From contig OX597831.1 in NCBI GenBank assembly GCA_951406725.2, positions 62,310,001 to 62,374,000 of the forward strand: a stretch of DNA of 64,000 nucleotides, written 5' to 3'. Source of the DNA: Octopus vulgaris. Taxonomy: Eukaryota. Under the pieces are notes generated by a model. The model worked only from the letters and a program-made list of their open reading frames with translations, was not told where the DNA came from and did not search any database. This document shows, piece after piece, positions 1 to 54,705 of the stretch. The translations under genes were made by a program, and so were the position numbers. Position 1 is the first letter of the stretch. Each line of letters starts with the position of its first letter.

Positions 1-700
1 TCGTCAAAGCACTTCTCATCTTAAGAAAAGAATTATCAAGGCATTTACAGTGCAGAGTTTTATTGCTTTCGTTTTGTTCTAACTAATAATATACTTCCTA
101 TATACCTTTCAATATATGAAAAAATACTAAATGTTGTGTAATTATCCTTACAATACTAGACTAGATTGGACCAACAAAGTGCTGTAGAGAAAAGGTACAA
201 ATATAACGTGCAAATATGAAATTAAGAATAAATAAATAACTATCGATGTTATGTCAAAATGAATATGATTTTAAAATTTAGTGGAAAAGAATGCATATAT
301 AAACATTAAAAATACGAAGAAAGAAAACATGTTACATTGTGAATCGCCGTTAAGCATTTTAAAATCGAGAAATGATTATAAAGTGCGTGCGTTGTGTTTT
401 GTGTATTACATTAATGAAGTGTGTGGGTGTGCATTGTGCGAGTTGTCGGTGTAATATAATTACATATATAAATTTTGTATATATAATTTTGTGTTAAGCG
501 TCCGATGTTATATGAAACAGTGAGTTGCGATGAGAGCGTACCGTTTTATTTATTATTTATTTGTTGTCAAATGCAAACATTTATTCTCCTATTGACCGTA
601 ATGTTCTTGCTACGTAGCATAAGGTCAGCAGTGGTCGAGCAAGCCTATGATCAAATGCATTCCAGCTTTAGCAGTTTCGTCTTTTCCTTTTTTATATCAG

Positions 701-2893: not shown

Positions 2894-2943
2894 GGGTCAC
2901 TGATGAAGATCAAGTAAATCTGAAATCAGCGCTGATATGACTC
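2894..2943 (+). ncRNA. Type I hammerhead ribozyme in a ~0.6-kb segment between two (TA)n tracts
   Basis: gggtca-CTGATGA-agat caagtaa atct-GAAA-tcagcgctga-TA-tgactc. Canonical core, and stem III is a perfect palindrome. Confidence 0.85.
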
Positions 2944-27182: not shown

Positions 27183-27378
27183 ATTTATTTTATAGAAGGA
27201 GCTTCTACAGGACTAGAACTGTTTCATTCAGAAGAAATCATCAGGAAGCTTCCTGATGATTTCTTCTGAATGTAAAAAGTTCTAGTCCTGTAGAAGCTCC
27301 TTCTATAAAATAAATTAATTTAATCTGCTATGTATTGAGTACCTTATTTACTGTGGTTAACCCGGACTCAACCCAGGA

Positions 27379-27380
<2 letters not shown>
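27183..27380. mobile_element. Solo PLE pseudo-LTR fragment of the same family as the intact element, as a fold-back with two opposed HHR copies
   Basis: Near-perfect palindrome 27183-27315 centred on ggaagcttcc. The right arm continues to 27380, matching the reverse complement of ~34696-34770. Embedded in (TA)n. Confidence 0.85.
27200..27250 (-). ncRNA. Minimal type I hammerhead ribozyme (intact copy of the palindrome)
   Basis: agcttc-CTGATGA-tttc ttct gaat-GAAA-cag ttctagtc ctg-TA-gaagct. The + strand copy (27247-27298) has GAAACAG mutated to GTAAAAAG. Confidence 0.82.
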
Positions 27381-27434
<54 letters not shown>

Positions 27435-29335: not shown

Positions 29336-29379
<44 letters not shown>

Positions 29380-29380
<1 letters not shown>

Positions 29381-29767
29381 TATATAGAAGGAGCTTCTAC
29401 AGGACTAGTACTGTTTCATTCAAGAGAAATCTTCAGGAAGCTATTTAACAAGAATTGTATTAGCATTTATACATTTAGGCAGGTTTAAAGGAGTGGTGGT
29501 GGGGGACTTTTTGGGGGTAGGCATAGCGCAAAATATCATACTTGGGGGAGTGGTCAAGGAGTCAGTGGTAAGTTAGATGAAAGAATAGATAAATAAAAAA
29601 ATATAAAAATAAAAAAATTAAAAATATATATAAAAAATATATATATAAAAATATATATATAAAAAAAGGGGGGATAGAGTTATAGGTAAATAAGGAGATT
29701 CTCACTTATACCTATACACACATGTATACGTATCTACACACACATATATATATACACATATATATAT

Positions 29768-29818
<51 letters not shown>

Positions 29819-30262
29819 CACACATACATACATATCTACATACACACATACATACACCCGCCCACATATACAAATTTATACACATGCACATGCCTATACC
29901 TGTCTACACATACACACACGTATATATGCATACACTCACTCCCATGCATGCACGCATACACACATGTATATATATATATATACCCACGACCACACATACA
30001 TATATACACATAAAAATATATATTCATACGCACATACACTCATGCACACACAACACACCTAGTTCCCTATATACACATATTTACACCTATATATACATAC
30101 ACCCACATACACCTATGTACATATATATATATATATATATATACATATACACGCATACATATATATACATGTGTGCACATACATACATACACACATATAT
30201 ACATACACATACACATACACATGTGTACCTATACATACCTACACATACACACATACATACAT

Positions 30263-30297
<35 letters not shown>

Positions 30298-30914
30298 CCA
30301 ATACAGGCCCATTCCCTAATTTTAATTTTATTATCTTCATTTATTACTTTTGTTATCTTTGATCGCTAGAGCTAAGAATCCTGGCAATGGCTGCATGTCC
30401 ATTTGTTTGTCTACTAGAAGGCAAGTACTCATTCCCGCACGCACACTCATTAGCACGTACATTCACCCATTCGTACACTCATACACATACACGTACGCAC
30501 GCGTTATATTCATACATACAAACATCTACATACGTTCACGTATATACACATACGTACTCGTACCTACAGATTCGTGTCTACACTTTAGGAGGCTAGTCTA
30601 TACATATACACCAATAAATATACATATATATATATGTACACACATATACATACACACACACATATATACTCCTACATACAGATACATACCTATATATATA
30701 TATATATATATAAATACATATATATATACATACATACACACATACACACATACATATACACATACATACATACACATATATATACATACACAAACATATA
30801 TACACACATATATATATACATACACACATACACACATACATACGTATACATACATACATACATCCATACATCCATACTTACATGCATTTATACGCATACA
30901 CACACCCATCTATA

Positions 30915-30951
<37 letters not shown>

Positions 30952-31231
30952 TCACACATACATATACAAATCTACGCACACACATACATACATACACGTA
31001 TACACATACACGCACATACACATATACATGCGTACCCATACACGTGCACACACGCACGCGCATCCATATATATACACACACACACATATATATACACGTG
31101 TGCAAGCATACATACATACTCATACGCGCACACATACTTACATATACATATATGCACACACTTACACACATATATATACATACACATATACATGCATACA
31201 TACATATATGCATACATACACACACGCACTC

Positions 31232-31240
<9 letters not shown>
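29380..31240. repeat. Left arm of ~1.86-kb inverted repeat (3' end of PLE)
   Basis: Reverse complement of 34871-36735, including unique islands (the same ORF-track peptides [12 protein letters not shown]... and [12 protein letters not shown]... occur on both strands). Confidence 0.95.
29392..29442 (-). ncRNA. Minimal type I hammerhead ribozyme (PLE 3' pseudo-LTR)
   Basis: Minus strand reads agcttc-CTGAAGA-tttc tctt gaat-GAAA-cag tactagtc ctg-TA-gaagct. Core is intact, stem I is 6 bp, and loop 3 contains the palindrome ACTAGT. Confidence 0.88.
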
Positions 31241-31292
<52 letters not shown>

Positions 31293-31331
31293 CACATACA
31301 TACACATACACATACATACACATATATACAC

Positions 31332-31366
<35 letters not shown>

Positions 31367-31568
31367 TACATATATACACATATACATACATATACATACA
31401 CACACACATACATATATACATATACACTGATACACATACCCATACATATATATATATATATACACACACACATATACACATGCATATACTTATATCACTA
31501 CATACTCACATATATAAACATATATACATATACACACATACATATATACATGTACATACACATACGTA

Positions 31569-31602
<34 letters not shown>

Positions 31603-32224
31603 CATATATATATATATATATATATACATACACACACACACACATACATATACACATATACATATATACATATCTATATAAATGATACACATATATACAC
31701 ATACACACACACATATATATATACATTCATGCATATACATATACAAGTATACATACACATACATACACACACACGCGCACACATACATATACACACACAC
31801 ATATACAAATACATACATACACACATACACACACACATATATATATATATACATACATGTACACATATACATATATATATATATCAACAAGGGAGGGTAA
31901 AGTTAATTAGTTATTAGTCAATTTCATCAAGTGTTCAGTATGTAAAGGGACCATTATTATTTTGAGTAAACAATGTTAGAGGGAAAAAAATTCTCTAAGT
32001 AGTGGAAGAGGCTTAAAACTTTATTGGCTGCTATTTCTAGAAAGTTTAGTATGTGGCAACGTAATTTATTTTATTTTACTAAGCCCTAATTATATAATAT
32101 TTTATTTTATACATACATACACATACATAAGCACATACATTTACACATACATATGCATATACATATATACACATATACATACAAACACATATACACATAT
32201 ACACACACACACACACATACAAGC

Positions 32225-32265
<41 letters not shown>

Positions 32266-32505
32266 AATATATGTACATATATATTTTTTTACATGCATAC
32301 ATACACACACACACACATAATACATGCGTATATTCCTACTGTACCCATGCATTTCTATACATATATACATACATACGATACACATATACAAGCGTGCACA
32401 TATAATATGTGAAAGGTCTTAGGAGAAAAGGTAATCGGGGGTGCTAGGGGAACATTGGGGTTGGGGGGGTTGTAGGGGGGGGGTTGTAGGGGGGGGGGGT
32501 TGTCA

Positions 32506-34647
32506 TCAATCAGGTTGCCGGGTAGGTCTATAGTTCTTGTAGTTCGCATACTTCTTATGCATGCAATTTGGGGAGTGTTCTGAAAATTTGTTAAGGAGAG
32601 GGCCTTTGGCGAACAAGATCTCTAGGCTCTCTGATATGCATAGGTCACAGCAGGTATGTCCTCCTGTGTACGAGCGCGCCTTCTGTAGTAGTTTCCACTT
32701 GGTCTTGAAGGGGATTGAGTTCCTTTTAAGGTACCAGATGTGGGCGGCGAGGGTAGTTTGGTTGGATTTATCCTGTCGCCGGAACGAGTGTGTATGTGCG
32801 TACCAGCGGGTCTTAAAGCTGTTTGACGTCATTCCAATGTAGGATTTACTTTTATCGTCAAGGCCTGATCTTACCTCGCATTTATATACTAGGTCCCTCT
32901 GTAGGCAGTTGTTGTTGAGGGGGCAGGTGGTTTTATCATGGCAGTTGCAGTTGCTATCGGACGTTGGATGGGCCCCGGAGAAAGTAGATATGTTAAGTTT
33001 TTTCACATTGTTGTTGGCTAGGTTCCTGGCTAGGTTGGGCGTGGTAGAGTAGGAGAGTCTAATAGTGTTCTTATTTAGGATAGTGTAGTACTTATGTTGG
33101 GTGGGGAAGTGTTTCTGTAGGAGAGTGAAAAAGATCTTAGCTACAGGTGTAGCGACCTCACGGTTGAAGGGGGAGTTGTACCAGCTAATGTGTCTTCGTC
33201 TATTTTTCCTGGGTTGGCGTGGGGCTATACTAGTGTAGGTAATCTTATCTTTAAAACCACTGCGGGCCAGGGCCTCGTTGTAATAGGGGGCTGCGGCCTT
33301 AAAGATATCTTCCGTGGCGGACAGGCTAGAGATTCTAATTGAGACACTTTTTACTAGGTTATCTAATATATTTCTGGGGTGGTTGGAATTGATATCTATA
33401 TATCTAAGGGATTCATTTGGTTTGTGGTACGGGTAATAAAGTGAGGTTTTTAAGTCGAGGGTGACATCTAGGAAGTTAGCCTTTGTTAAGTTGGATTCTA
33501 GGGTAATCCTAAGGCCTAAGTTTTTAAAGAAGGTGTGAAGATTTTTCCGGAACCCATCCGTGGTCCTGGGGTTTATATTGTGGAGGGCGAAAAGGCCGTC
33601 ATCTCGGTAAAGACCACCGGAGAGGCCTGTGAATAGGGTTTTCAGCCTATGGAGGATGAAAAGGCCCACTAGGTCACTTATTTCAGCAGAGTCGTTAGCA
33701 CCCATGCTGACGTCGAAGGGGGTCACAGATTTTTTGTTGATCCAGTGGGATCCGTCATAGAAAAGAAAAGTCTTACGTGCGTGGAGGATCACATCTTGCT
33801 CGGCCTCGGTGATGGTGGAGGACCTCCTGGCGAAGTTAATCGCATTGATCAGCAAGCTCTCCGATATAGAGGCGTAGTAATCCTCGATATCCAGTTGTAG
33901 GAATCGGGTGTTGCTTTTATTTGGTAAATCCCGGAACCAAGTTATTGCCTCGGAGGTCCTATTCCAGAGTGGAAGGGGTGAAGCTTCACGCATTTTTGGT
34001 AAAATCCTGTCCAGGATCTTCTTGCTGACGGATCCGATGTCAGACTTGGTTGGGTTAATCAAACGGACCGACGGTTTATTTTCGAAATGGTCTTTGTGGT
34101 CTTTCAGGGTGAAGTGTGGGGACTTCACCCTCAGGGGTTCTGTTCGGTCGTCGATTTTAAGGGAGGTGGCAATCTCTTTCCCGGCCAAGTTGGTTTCAGT
34201 TAGCGCTGCGTCGTCTACTTTCTTGTATTTAGCTGTGATGGCGTTATCGGCTAGTCTATTATAGGTATCCGGAGTCACCGCGTAAATATTTTTTGTCTTG
34301 TCCGAAGGGACATGGAGGTTCTGGGAGCTTTTCATTTTCGAAAGCTTCGCATTCAGTTCCGTTTGGAAAGGTAAGTTGACTCTCCTGAATTTGATGTTTT
34401 TTATCATGAGGAAGAGGTCTTCTTCAAACGGTTCAAGTAGGCTGTTGGTAGGAGGGGCCTTATTTGATTTGAAGCCGTACTTATCATTACTGGTAGATGC
34501 TACATCAGGGTTGTCGAAGAAGAAAGATCTCCATCGAATTCTTTTGATGAACTCATCAGTCCGTCTAATGAGGGCTTTTTGGTACTGTTTCCTTGGTGGG
34601 ATAGTAATGTTCTTCAGGGAAGTGTCGAGGTCGATTCTTGTCAGCAT
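32506..34647 (-). CDS. Penelope-like element ORF: reverse transcriptase + C-terminal GIY-YIG endonuclease (probably Hydra-clade PLE), 713 aa, uninterrupted
   Basis: RT motifs LQLDIEDYYASI, FDVSMGANDSAEISDLVG, GLYRDDGL and ANFLDVTL. Linker CNCHDKTTCPL (CxCx5C). GIY-YIG LVYKCEV...SYIGMT...FKTRWYAH with CDLC and LLNK. No stops or frameshifts. Confidence 0.95.
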   Translation of the reverse strand: MLTRIDLDTSLKNITIPPRKQYQKALIRRTDEFIKRIRWRSFFFDNPDVASTSNDKYGFKSNKAPPTNSLLEPFEEDLFLMIKNIKFRRVNLPFQTELNAKLSKMKSSQNLHVPSDKTKNIYAVTPDTYNRLADNAITAKYKKVDDAALTETNLAGKEIATSLKIDDRTEPLRVKSPHFTLKDHKDHFENKPSVRLINPTKSDIGSVSKKILDRILPKMREASPLPLWNRTSEAITWFRDLPNKSNTRFLQLDIEDYYASISESLLINAINFARRSSTITEAEQDVILHARKTFLFYDGSHWINKKSVTPFDVSMGANDSAEISDLVGLFILHRLKTLFTGLSGGLYRDDGLFALHNINPRTTDGFRKNLHTFFKNLGLRITLESNLTKANFLDVTLDLKTSLYYPYHKPNESLRYIDINSNHPRNILDNLVKSVSIRISSLSATEDIFKAAAPYYNEALARSGFKDKITYTSIAPRQPRKNRRRHISWYNSPFNREVATPVAKIFFTLLQKHFPTQHKYYTILNKNTIRLSYSTTPNLARNLANNNVKKLNISTFSGAHPTSDSNCNCHDKTTCPLNNNCLQRDLVYKCEVRSGLDDKSKSYIGMTSNSFKTRWYAHTHSFRRQDKSNQTTLAAHIWYLKRNSIPFKTKWKLLQKARSYTGGHTCCDLCISESLEILFAKGPLLNKFSEHSPNCMHKKYANYKNYRPTRQPD

Positions 34648-34778
34648 TTTTCTTGGTGATGGTTATAAGGGCACTAGGGTGTGCTAAGATATGTAGGTCC
34701 CGGGTTGATTCGGGGTTAACCACAGTAAGTAAGGTACTCAATACATAGCAGAGTAAAATTAATTTATTATATAGAAGG

Positions 34779-34829
34779 AGCTTCTACAGGACTAGTACTG
34801 TTTCATTCAAGAGAAATCTTCAGGAAGCT
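34779..34829 (-). ncRNA. Minimal type I hammerhead ribozyme (PLE 5' pseudo-LTR)
   Basis: Identical to the 29392-29442 motif, ~130 nt upstream of the ORF ATG in sense orientation. Confidence 0.88.
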
Positions 34830-34870
34830 ATTTAACAAGAATTGTATCAGCATTTATACATTTATACATT

Positions 34871-35376
34871 TATATATATGAGTGCGTGTGTGTATGTATG
34901 CATATATGTATGTATGCATGTATATGTGTATGTATATATATGTGTGTAAGTGTGTGCATATATGTATATGTAAGTATGTGTGCGCGTATGAGTATGTATG
35001 TATGCTTGCACACGTGTATATATATGTGTGTGTGTGTATATATATGGATGCGCGTGCGTGTGTGCACGTGTATGGGTACGCATGTATATGTGTATGTGCG
35101 TGTATGTGTATACGTGTATGTATGTATGTGTGTGCGTAGATTTGTATATGTATGTGTGAGTGTGTATATATATATATATATATATATACATATATATAGA
35201 TGGGTGTGTGTGTATGCGTATAAATGCATGTAAGTATGGATGTATGGATGTATGTATGTATGTATACGTATGTATGTGTGTATGTGTGTATGTATATATA
35301 TATGTGTGTATATATGTTTGTGTATGTATATATATGTGTATGTATGTGTGTGTATATGTATGTGTGTATGTGTATG

Positions 35377-35434
<58 letters not shown>

Positions 35435-35823
35435 TATGTATCTGTATGTAGGAGTATATATGTGTGTGTGTATGTATATGTGTATATATATATATATGTA
35501 TATTTATTGGTGTATATGTATAGACTAGCCTCCTAAAGTGTAGACACGAATCTGTAGGTACGAGTACGTATGTGTATATACGTGAACGTATGTAGATGTT
35601 TGTATGTATGAATATAACGCGTGCGTACGTGTATGTGTATGAGTGTACGAATGGGTGAATGTACGTGCTAATGAGTGTGCGTGCGGGAATGAGTACTTGC
35701 CTTCTAGTAGACAGACAAATGGACATGCAGCCATTGCCAGGATTCTTAGCTCTAGCGATCAAAGATAACAAAAGTAATAAATGAAGATAATAAAATTAAA
35801 ATTAGGGAATGGGCCTGTATTGG

Positions 35824-35858
<35 letters not shown>

Positions 35859-35971
35859 ATGTATGTATGTGTGTATGTGTAGGTATGTATAGGTACACAT
35901 GTGTATGTGTATGTGTATGTATATATGTGTGTATGTATGTATGTGCACACATGTATATATATGTATGCGTG

Positions 35972-36002
<31 letters not shown>

Positions 36003-36304
36003 GTACATAGGTGTATGTGGGTGTATGTATATATAGGTGTAAATATGTGTATATAGGGAACTAGGTGTGTTGTGTGTGCATGAGTGTATGTGCGTATGAA
36101 TATATATTTTTATGTGTATATATGTATGTGTGGTCGTGGGTATATATATATATATACATGTGTGTATGCGTGCATGCATGGGAGTGAGTGTATGCATATA
36201 TACGTGTGTGTATGTGTAGACAGGTATAGGCATGTGCATGTGTATAAATTTGTATATGTGGGCGGGTGTATGTATGTGTGTATGTAGATATGTATGTATG
36301 TGTG

Positions 36305-36359
<55 letters not shown>

Positions 36360-36735
36360 GTGTATATATATATGTGTGTGTAGATACGTATACATGTGTG
36401 TATAGGTATAAGTGAGAATCTCCTTATTTACCTATAACTCTATCCCCCCTTTTTTTATATATATATTTTTATATATATTTTTTATATATATTTTTAATTT
36501 TTTTATTTTTTTATTTTTTTATTTATCTATTCTTTCATCTAACTTACCACTGACTCCCTGACCACTCCCCCAAGTATGATATTTTGCGCTATGCCTACCC
36601 CCAAAAAGTCCCCCACCACCACTCCTTTAAACCTGCCTAAATGTATAAATGCTAATACAATTCTTGTTAAATAGCTTCCTGAAGATTTCTCTTGAATGAA
36701 ACAGTACTAGTCCTGTAGAAGCTCCTTCTATATAA
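34871..36735. repeat. Right arm of ~1.86-kb inverted repeat (inverted PLE 3' copy)
   Basis: Matches 29380-31240 in reverse complement with only a few substitutions and (TA)n length changes. Confidence 0.95.
36673..36723 (+). ncRNA. Minimal type I hammerhead ribozyme (inverted PLE arm)
   Basis: agcttc-CTGAAGA-tttctcttgaat-GAAA-cagtactagtcctg-TA-gaagct read directly on the + strand. Confidence 0.88.
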
Positions 36736-40130: not shown

Positions 40131-40505
40131 TATTATATAGAGGGCACTATTACACATAGATGCCTCACGCTAGGAGTGACACTTAAAGTCAAAACTACTA
40201 AAATAAGCAAACACGTTGTACCGAAACAATTCTCGAAGCAAGTCATCTATAAACAGAAGTTAGTCACATATCACACTGTGTTTATTCATTATATATCTTG
40301 AATTATGCACACACTGAAGAGTAAAGAGCGAATATTATTGCACTGACTACGAAATCACAGTGTGATATGTGGTTAAATTCTGTTTTGAGATGGCTTGCTT
40401 CGAGAATTGTTTCGGTACAACGTGTTTACTTATTTTAGTAGTTTTGACTTTAAGAGTCCCTCCTAGCGTGAGGTATTTATATGTAATAGTGCCCTCGATA
40501 TAATA
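40131..40505. mobile_element. Fold-back element (~150-bp inverted arms 40131-40283 / 40352-40505) containing a hammerhead, PLE pseudo-LTR-like
   Basis: Arms are reverse complements with scattered mismatches, and the left arm stops inside the HHR sequence. Confidence 0.8.
40310..40371 (+). ncRNA. Type I hammerhead ribozyme
   Basis: caca-CTGAAGA-gta[24-nt loop]tac-GAAA-tcac agt gtga-TA-tgtg. Confidence 0.75.
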
Positions 40506-54642: not shown

Positions 54643-54705
54643 TAATAAAACTCCGAGTTTCGGATTCCGGGTCGAAAACCCACGCAGCCATCTCTTCAGT
54701 TATCA
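54643..54705 (-). ncRNA. Hammerhead ribozyme motif adjacent to (TA)n
   Basis: tgataa-CTGAAGA-gat...gggt tttcg accc...atcc-GAAA-ctcggag-TT-ttatta. Stem III resembles the 3604 motif. Confidence 0.6.

Follow-up and report, generated by a model that had tools for sequence, protein, structure and literature searches.

Does a retrotransposon with a hammerhead ribozyme at each end excise its own RNA, close it into a circle and copy itself from that circle? The question is raised by a 64,000-nucleotide (nt) stretch of Octopus vulgaris DNA (GenBank assembly GCA_951406725.2, contig OX597831.1, positions 62,310,001 to 62,374,000; here "the window"), which holds an intact Penelope-like element (PLE), assigned to the Hydra clade by its motifs. 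Two identical hammerheads on the minus strand enclose one open reading frame (ORF), and an earlier note had proposed that they activate each other across 5.4 kb and release a unit-length RNA able to circularise. We compared this copy with its relatives in the genome (2.8 Gb in 227 contigs), and the answer is a divided one. Most insertions appear to have been copied from uncut transcripts, and long, more-than-unit copies from a circle made when both hammerheads cleaved the RNA and its ends were ligated; we put the probability of this reading at about 0.5. Elements of this kind are already known, and the circle hypothesis itself was published in 2014.

Relative to +1 (34784, the first nucleotide after the predicted 5' cut, minus strand), the element and its surroundings are laid out as follows.

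34779 to 34829, minus strand: 5' type I hammerhead, -45 to +6, predicted cut 34785/34784
29392 to 29442, minus strand: 3' type I hammerhead, identical, predicted cut 29398/29397
36673 to 36723, plus strand: third identical hammerhead, in the inverted arm, core at 36679, predicted cut 36717/36718
32506 to 34647, minus strand: single ORF of 713 amino acids, telomerase-like reverse transcriptase (RT) and C-terminal GIY-YIG endonuclease, with motifs RWR, DKT, YRDDG, CxCx5C, YIG, CxxC and CxH
34762 to 34864, minus strand: short 5' pseudo-long terminal repeat (pseudo-LTR), a 103-nt direct repeat of 29375-29477, reaching 80 nt upstream of the cut
34852 to 34858, minus strand: TATA-like box, putative promoter element, first T at -74, 29 nt above the putative start at -45 (34829)
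29465 to 29471, minus strand, and 36644 to 36650, plus strand: further copies of the TATA-like box, by sequence
34689 to 34762, minus strand: interval between the two putative RT start sites, the 73-nt "tail" (+23 = 34762, +96 = 34689)
29398 to 32505, minus strand: 3.1-kb 3' region, mostly TA/TG microsatellite with short unique blocks common to all copies
29375 to 29397, minus strand: 3' terminus of the window copy at +23, running into the (TA)n target
34852 to 36735, plus strand: second cDNA arm, repeating the 3' region in inverted, 5'-truncated form, reverse complement of 29380-31259 at 97.7%
27183 to 27385, no strand assigned: palindromic mini-insertion, distinct from the element and of a related subfamily, whose +96 and +23 arms meet at -45, with (TA)n flanks

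The hammerheads are of type I, with a 6-bp stem I, a CTGAAGA core (starting at 34823 and 29436), a U.U pair followed by a 3-bp stem II, GAAA, and a stem III of 4 bp whose 8-nt loop contains ACTAGT; the predicted cut falls at GUA. The earlier note had described this anatomy and both cut sites correctly, and it was right that the enclosed ORF encodes its own RT and endonuclease. The 5,387 nt that it gave between the two cuts were reproduced for the window copy; as a fixed unit that length did not hold, with other full-length copies spanning about 4.8-6.1 kb. Spacing varies because TA/TG runs make up 57% of the 3' region. The third hammerhead had been overlooked, and a fourth, related one (core at 27244) sits in the 0.2-kb palindromic mini-insertion. 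The direct repeat around the two minus-strand hammerheads is only 103 nt long, with one mismatch. In 100 dinucleotide shuffles of the sequence the hammerhead motif was never matched, and a generic hammerhead descriptor gave 7 matches in the window versus 2 in 30 block shuffles; an Rfam scan of the window returned no match at gathering thresholds. The U.U position at stem II is typical of the clade, according to the listing of Hydra hammerheads in the supplement of Craig et al. 2021.

Genome-wide, a 30-nt hammerhead motif had 7,770 exact matches, compared with 0 for a control motif, and about 1,900 of the roughly 7,800 motifs keep the native upstream sequence. We read 3' termini in two sets of copies, and in all 153 of 153 sampled arms the terminus lay past the cut, with none at the cut. 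The ORF-bearing set (at least 44 matches, 93-100% identical, from the best 40 of 529 candidates, examined with 10-30 kb of flank) gave 38 loci and 62 terminal arms, of which 33 end at +18 to +27 and 29 at +96 (two of these read as +96 by BLAST); 19 arms run on into the ORF. The unselected set (60 regions covering 91 of the first 100 motif matches listed) gave 91 arms, 41 ending at +18 to +27, 48 at +96 or +100 and 2 at +60. Diverging pairs in this set combined a short end with a long end in 27 of 28 cases, and long pairs examined separately showed the same pairing. Nearly all termini run into (TA)n, a trait of the Hydra clade; the window's own inverted arm, which ends at +18 in non-(TA)n sequence, is an exception to the +23/+96 rule. 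Contigs from four sequencing runs also had loose ends into (TA)n, at 34689, 34758, 34762 and 34768; these contigs are assembled and their RNA status is uncertain, so that no expression claim rests on them. Taking these termini together, we infer that each strand of the target serves as a primer, and that the two priming sites on the RNA are 73 nt from each other. With termini at +23 and +96, RT therefore starts inside the RNA and crosses the cut site, on a template that was either uncut or re-ligated. Since both putative RT start sites lie downstream of the cut, and most copies derive from RNA left uncut at the hammerhead, the linear cut monomer cannot have served as template for ordinary insertions.

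The opposite ends of the arms point to the uncut alternative for most copies. Stem I begins at -45, and 23 of the 91 unselected arms have their end precisely there; a further 37 stop short of it, 6 reach -46 to -79 and the other 25 are long. Joins at -45 that form a perfect palindrome were found at ~240 loci (481 strand matches), whereas equal or longer palindromes 1-7 nt upstream of -45 were found at one locus each. TATAAAT starts at -74 in four subfamilies despite diverged spacers, and -46/-45 is pyrimidine/A in each. These data suggest that transcription starts at -45 and that both cDNAs run off uncut RNA there: 60 of the 91 copies in the unselected set do not pass -45, a position 29 nt below the TATA box, which points to uncut transcripts as the template. 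Two other causes of the -45 peak were considered. A 3' splice site at this position, as in Drosophila virilis (PMC2377424), is disfavoured, since the candidate branch motif is not conserved in other subfamilies of the octopus family, unlike the D. virilis intron case. Microhomology alone was rejected by palindrome controls, one of which covers a single subfamily, about half of the long arms listed.

The palindromic minis, exemplified in the window at 27183-27385, seem to be the commonest form of the family genome-wide. At one locus (L073), the two arms of one mini differ at a loop III base that marks subfamilies, which may mean that two RNAs templated one insertion. Another (L131, about 450-640) carries a 60-nt tandem repeat from the centre of a mini-insertion. 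G+4 is lost or changed in 14 of 109 short palindromic arms versus 0 of 89 long ones, with 202 genome matches, and G+1 is likewise affected. As a ligation scar this loss was set aside: it is confined to short palindromes, and we treated it as probable hairpin sequencing error.

These termini decide the strongest form of the earlier proposal, in which pairing across 5.4 kb would cut efficiently and the excised monomer, linear or circular, would be the main RNA and template. The dimer form of helix III is predicted to be far more stable than the monomer, and tandem copies do exist. However, no copy has its 3' end at the cut, so that the terminus census contradicts the monomer as the main route. 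The end of most insertions, at -45, lies upstream of the cut, for which an intact 5' hammerhead is needed. The loop palindrome ACTAGT is moreover shortened to CTAG in 87 of 176 arms. We regard efficient excision of the main template as very improbable.

Circularisation of a unit-length RNA, which the earlier note had also envisaged, likewise fails as the main route; it is plausible for the long copies, which are more than one unit in length and carry matching variants. Not one of the 18 full-length loci comes to a stop at -45 or +1, whereas 60 of 91 unselected arms end at or before -45 (Fisher p 7e-8). Their upstream repeats extend from 63 to about 6,500 nt, one locus (L029) reaching 2.2 units. 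We compared the 5' duplicates with the 3' duplicates (18 comparisons in 17 loci, L031 being excluded for nested insertions) and observed 34 differences in 12,587 sites, with 119 shared minority alleles, 7 private to one locus. The upstream duplicates match their own 3' copies, and therefore one unit was copied more than once.

A circle predicts such matching more-than-unit copies, and strand transfer on linear RNA predicts them too. Strand transfer would have the cDNA run off at -45 or +1 and re-anneal to the 3' repeat, as in LTR elements, or jump end to end between templates; the pseudo-LTR would be rebuilt without a circle, and the hammerhead would only occasionally trim or decap RNA. A terminal repeat of at least 68 nt (-45 to +23) at both ends would allow this, the matching 5' and 3' variants would be explained, and intermolecular jumps would account for the mosaic L027 and for the pattern of L036. 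Furthermore, -45 cDNA ends anneal to +1 to +6 in 29 of the 89 arms examined. However, run-off at -45 ends about two thirds of first passes and 0 of 18 second passes, so that near-perfect jumping would be needed in the long copies only. Strand transfer seems to us a rather unlikely explanation, and the circle the leading but unproven one, for long copies only.

If RNA was cut and ligated, junctions at the cut site may have been copied into DNA. Among arms carrying +1 to +25, TA precedes +1 without a break in 4,490; the base at -1 differs in 59 and that at -2 in 31. We read 58 of the 59 and all 31, assigning classes by hand: these 89 altered arms comprised 37 substitutions or small indels, 29 joins of a partner ending at ~-45 to +1 to +6, and 23 true junctions at +1 or -1, in 21 loci. 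These are single assembly loci, unconfirmed by reads. Where a junction locus has a partner arm, that arm also ends no more than 2 nt from the cut in 11 of 17 cases, usually with filler between. Long joins (13 nt or longer, foreign or joined in sense) occur in 7 of the 21 cut-junction loci versus 1 of 41 unselected short insertions (p 0.0015, on classes assigned by hand). Of these seven, the cut is joined to an internal ORF position in sense in L159 and to part of the element's 3' region in L174, and foreign sequence stands at the cut on both arms in L170, L213 and L261 and on one arm in L243. In L213 (about 190-245, minus strand), both arms end at +1 and the 56 nt inserted between them look like the 3' half of another hammerhead, stopping at the cut triplet of that hammerhead; in L261 (about 120-250), ~130 nt of very GC-rich foreign sequence is joined at the cut on both arms. 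An Rfam scan of six junction loci by E value gave microsatellite and hairpin noise only, leaving the foreign inserts, that of L261 included, without a match. L259 (about 180-480), the seventh, holds 2.4 tandem turns of a +1 to +125 unit with identical joints, as would be expected from copying of a mini-circle; later DNA duplication is the alternative. Foreign joins at +1 could also be RT jumps rather than products of RNA ligation, as strand transfer would have it, but long foreign joins are far commoner at +1 than they are at -45, the pattern to be expected if the 5'-OH end can be ligated and the other end is capped. Overall, the cut-site junctions are suggestive of rare in vivo cleavage and ligation, in about 0.5% of arms.

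Predicted folds are consistent with such rarity. The earlier description of minimal, dimer-prone hammerheads was borne out: stem III is predicted at -1.4 kcal/mol alone and at -15.2 kcal/mol as a two-copy duplex (-12.8 for the duplex of the common loop variant), and thousands of other genome copies could serve as partners. A 6-nt hairpin across the cut site (-6.1 kcal/mol) competes with stem I (-6.3 kcal/mol, both predicted), and because of this competition the monomer is predicted to adopt the active fold only rarely in its sequence context, at 2e-5 to 2e-3. Common variants in 176 arms are limited to core position N7, loop II and one base of loop III; this confined variation is consistent with selection on catalysis, though the family is young.

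The folding estimate also bears on the view that only uncut read-through transcripts from tandem or host-driven loci serve as templates. The hammerhead would then be largely dispensable, as it is in vitro for the PAc/Poseidon_Ac element of Anolis (Frangieh et al. 2024, PMC11167929), and tandems would arise by insertion into existing copies or by DNA recombination. The rarity of the active fold and the continuity of 98% of arms across the cut fit such templates, as do elements that have inserted into their own microsatellites (L029, L031). Unprocessed RNA was the dominant substrate in Anolis, and Naiad PLEs are described without canonical hammerheads. Read-through gives no account, however, of how lineage-private variants reach both pseudo-LTRs, and two complete units are present in only 1 of the 18 full-length loci. 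Nor does it explain why catalytic positions are conserved while loops vary, or why junction fossils are located at the cut. We therefore hold it to be improbable, although less so than efficient excision of a monomer template.

The sequence of events that we favour, uncut RNA for most copies and a circle for the long ones, would run as follows. Transcription would start from the TATA box of the pseudo-LTR at -45, the first base of hammerhead stem I. The endonuclease would cut both strands of a (TA)n target, and the two ends would prime RT, one at +23 and the other at +96. On uncut RNA, both cDNAs would run off at -45 and join, giving the abundant 0.2-kb palindromes. Cleavage is predicted to stay rare, held back by the competing hairpin and by weak stems, and to depend on a dimer partner or a protein. 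When both hammerheads did cut, a host ligase (of RtcB type, according to the retrozyme literature) would join the ends; on the resulting circle, RT would meet no 5' end, would pass the hammerhead again and would rebuild the promoter that a linear copy would lose.

Several observations weigh against these events. Cleavage, ligation, the circle and the start site are all deduced from genome sequence and predicted folds. In vitro, the Anolis element inserted normally when its hammerhead was mutated, and RNA-seq gave no reads with an end at the cut (PMC11167929). The cut is crossed without interruption in 4,490 of about 4,580 arms (98%), where ligated and uncut junctions are indistinguishable. Junctions occur at +2 about as often as at +1 (5 in 30 sampled from 105 loci) and the control lies on the +2 side only; the counts therefore do not show a wall at +1, though none of the five +2 junctions carries a long insert. 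Symmetric deletion of palindrome centres could mimic the co-termination of partner arms at the cut. The L213 insert has no other exact match in the genome, and its source family was not found. Ten within-locus differences between duplicates have both alleles elsewhere; five of them are in L027 (G000 C8 3.327-3.347 Mb), where two tandem units form a mosaic of two haplotypes. A variant common to the 5' and inverted copies of L036 is absent from its 3' copy. First and second passes are not fully comparable, as two cDNA ends meet only on the first. Finally, the assembly carries homopolymer and hairpin errors and may homogenise repeats.

The identity of the element rests on its protein. Among 8,000 candidates scored, 1,082 relatives matched the ORF at E 1e-10 or better, the best full-length ones being ~40% identical. 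In an alignment of 50 homologs, YRDDG is invariant (50/50), as are the Y and G of the GIY-YIG motif (YIG at residue 603; 50/50) and the cysteines and histidine of CxCx5C (567-575), CxxC (667-670) and CxH (695-697; 50/50). RWR stands at residue 38, where homologs have K in 39 of 50 and R in 11 of 50, and DKT (from DKG) at residue 116; both belong to the motifs that vary little or not at all across the alignment. The predicted structure of the ORF (predicted local distance difference test score 89.7) has telomerase reverse transcriptase (TERT) as its top two Foldseek matches (E 5e-9). Sequence searches of the ORF in Pfam and PDB gave by themselves no RT match and were uninformative; a Pfam GIY-YIG match was obtained in 2 of the 50 homologs (E 1e-5) and none in the window ORF itself. 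The window copy carries private variants at unit positions 864, 939, 1611 and 1835 in the ORF and 2725, 2771, 2868 and 4378 in the 3' region. One private base at 33174 interrupts a C run and turns a proline kept in 49 of 50 homologs into serine. Most other assembly copies are one base short in this run, probably through assembly error. We took the frameshift common to most full-length copies as a homopolymer error; contigs of the four sequencing runs are without a deletion there.

These motifs, together with (TA)n targets, define the Hydra clade (RW[K/R], DKT, CxCx5C, CxxC, CxH; Craig et al. 2021, PMC8557442). The element shares with that clade the single ORF with RT and C-terminal GIY-YIG, a 3' hammerhead in which T flanks stem II at either side and stem III reads acag/ctgt, and a partial tandem with an inverted 5'-truncated copy and a one-end tail. 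The inverted arm and partial tandem are the standard PLE layout; the pseudo-LTR partial tandem, truncated inverted copy and one-end tail are all present here, as in endonuclease-positive PLEs, and at motif level type I hammerheads lie inside the pseudo-LTRs. Unlike the listed members of the clade, the window unit measures ~5.4 kb (maximum listed, 3,045 nt), has a 3.1-kb microsatellite 3' region, a loop III of 8 nt rather than 1-3 nt and a tail of 73 nt rather than 30-40 nt (PMC8557442). Elements of the clade are generally shorter than 3 kb, compared with about 4.8-6.1 kb here, but that is a tendency and not diagnostic. We take the family to be young and separate from Hydra-1_Obim, whose hammerhead differs.

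Other published elements resemble this one in part. In the Anolis element, two internal RT starts downstream of the hammerhead define the tail, targets are AT-rich, both strands are cut and the hammerhead is weak alone; the window element has AT-rich targets too and is predicted to share the other traits. PAc/Poseidon_Ac belongs to another clade, however; the putative start sites of the window element lie in the 5' untranslated region, their final bases being AT-rich and matching the (TA)n target, and the octopus family has genomic traces of cut-site ends, whereas none were found in Anolis RNA-seq (PMC11167929). The PLE circle model (PMC4209133) and non-LTR retrozymes (PMC7229834) share minimal type I hammerheads in both terminal repeats and dimer activation; ligation to circles and more-than-unit RT are also proposed, and opposite-strand hammerhead pairs 100-700 bp apart were noted in Schistosoma. 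Retrozymes are non-coding tandem units of 170-400 nt with experimentally shown circles (PMC7229834), unlike the autonomous 5.4-kb unit with its 713-amino-acid ORF, and the abundant small derivatives of the octopus family are inverted palindromes rather than tandem arrays. Penelope of D. virilis (Schostak et al. 2008, PMC2377424) likewise has a promoter in the pseudo-LTR and a partial tandem with an inverted repeat, and needs pseudo-LTR regeneration, for which there was "no obvious mechanism". Its internal promoter has no TATA box and an intron ends at helix I, in contrast to the upstream TATA box and putative helix I start here.

Further features accompany the element. Two short upstream ORFs lie in the putative leader on the minus strand, with ATG at 34806 (-22, inside the hammerhead) and 34746 (+39); cleavage at the 5' hammerhead would strip the first of these from the leader. 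The same 64 kb hold three more type I hammerhead-like motifs of other families, at 2894-2943 (plus), 40310-40371 (plus) and 54643-54705 (minus).

PLE cleavage, ligation into circles and more-than-unit RT were proposed by Cervera and de la Pena in 2014 (PMC4209133) and repeated in reviews. For small retrozymes, circles were shown, and RtcB ligates better than the ribozyme (PMC7229834). The Anolis PLE has two internal RT start sites in vitro, its hammerhead needs protein, and core mutants still insert (PMC11167929). Our literature search, which covered mainly openly accessible papers and few of their supplements, found no report of PLE circles or of cut-site junction fossils, and the in vivo role of PLE hammerheads has been called "still a mystery" (PMC7761336). 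A single family seeds about 7,800 ribozyme motifs across one genome, and this young, high-copy family gives exact coordinates for the putative start site, the predicted cut, the two putative RT starts and locus-private markers. The in vivo role of the hammerhead and the regeneration of the pseudo-LTR thereby become testable, and a 5-kb circular intermediate directly so; the value of follow-up lies in a family-wide record of RNA ends, which allows locus-phased tests of hammerhead activity and of the circle. More tentatively, and with somewhat less than even confidence, we suggest that the PLE RNA cycle as a whole may have left its fossils in the genome: capped RNA that stayed uncut giving thousands of palindromic minis, and cut RNA ligated at its 5'-OH to itself (L259, and the full 5-kb circle), to cellular RNAs (L261, L170) or to the cut end of another hammerhead (L213), with a 5-kb protein-coding circle regenerating the promoter. 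If true, such a record would count as in vivo evidence of an autonomous retrotransposon moving by way of ribozyme-made circular RNA.

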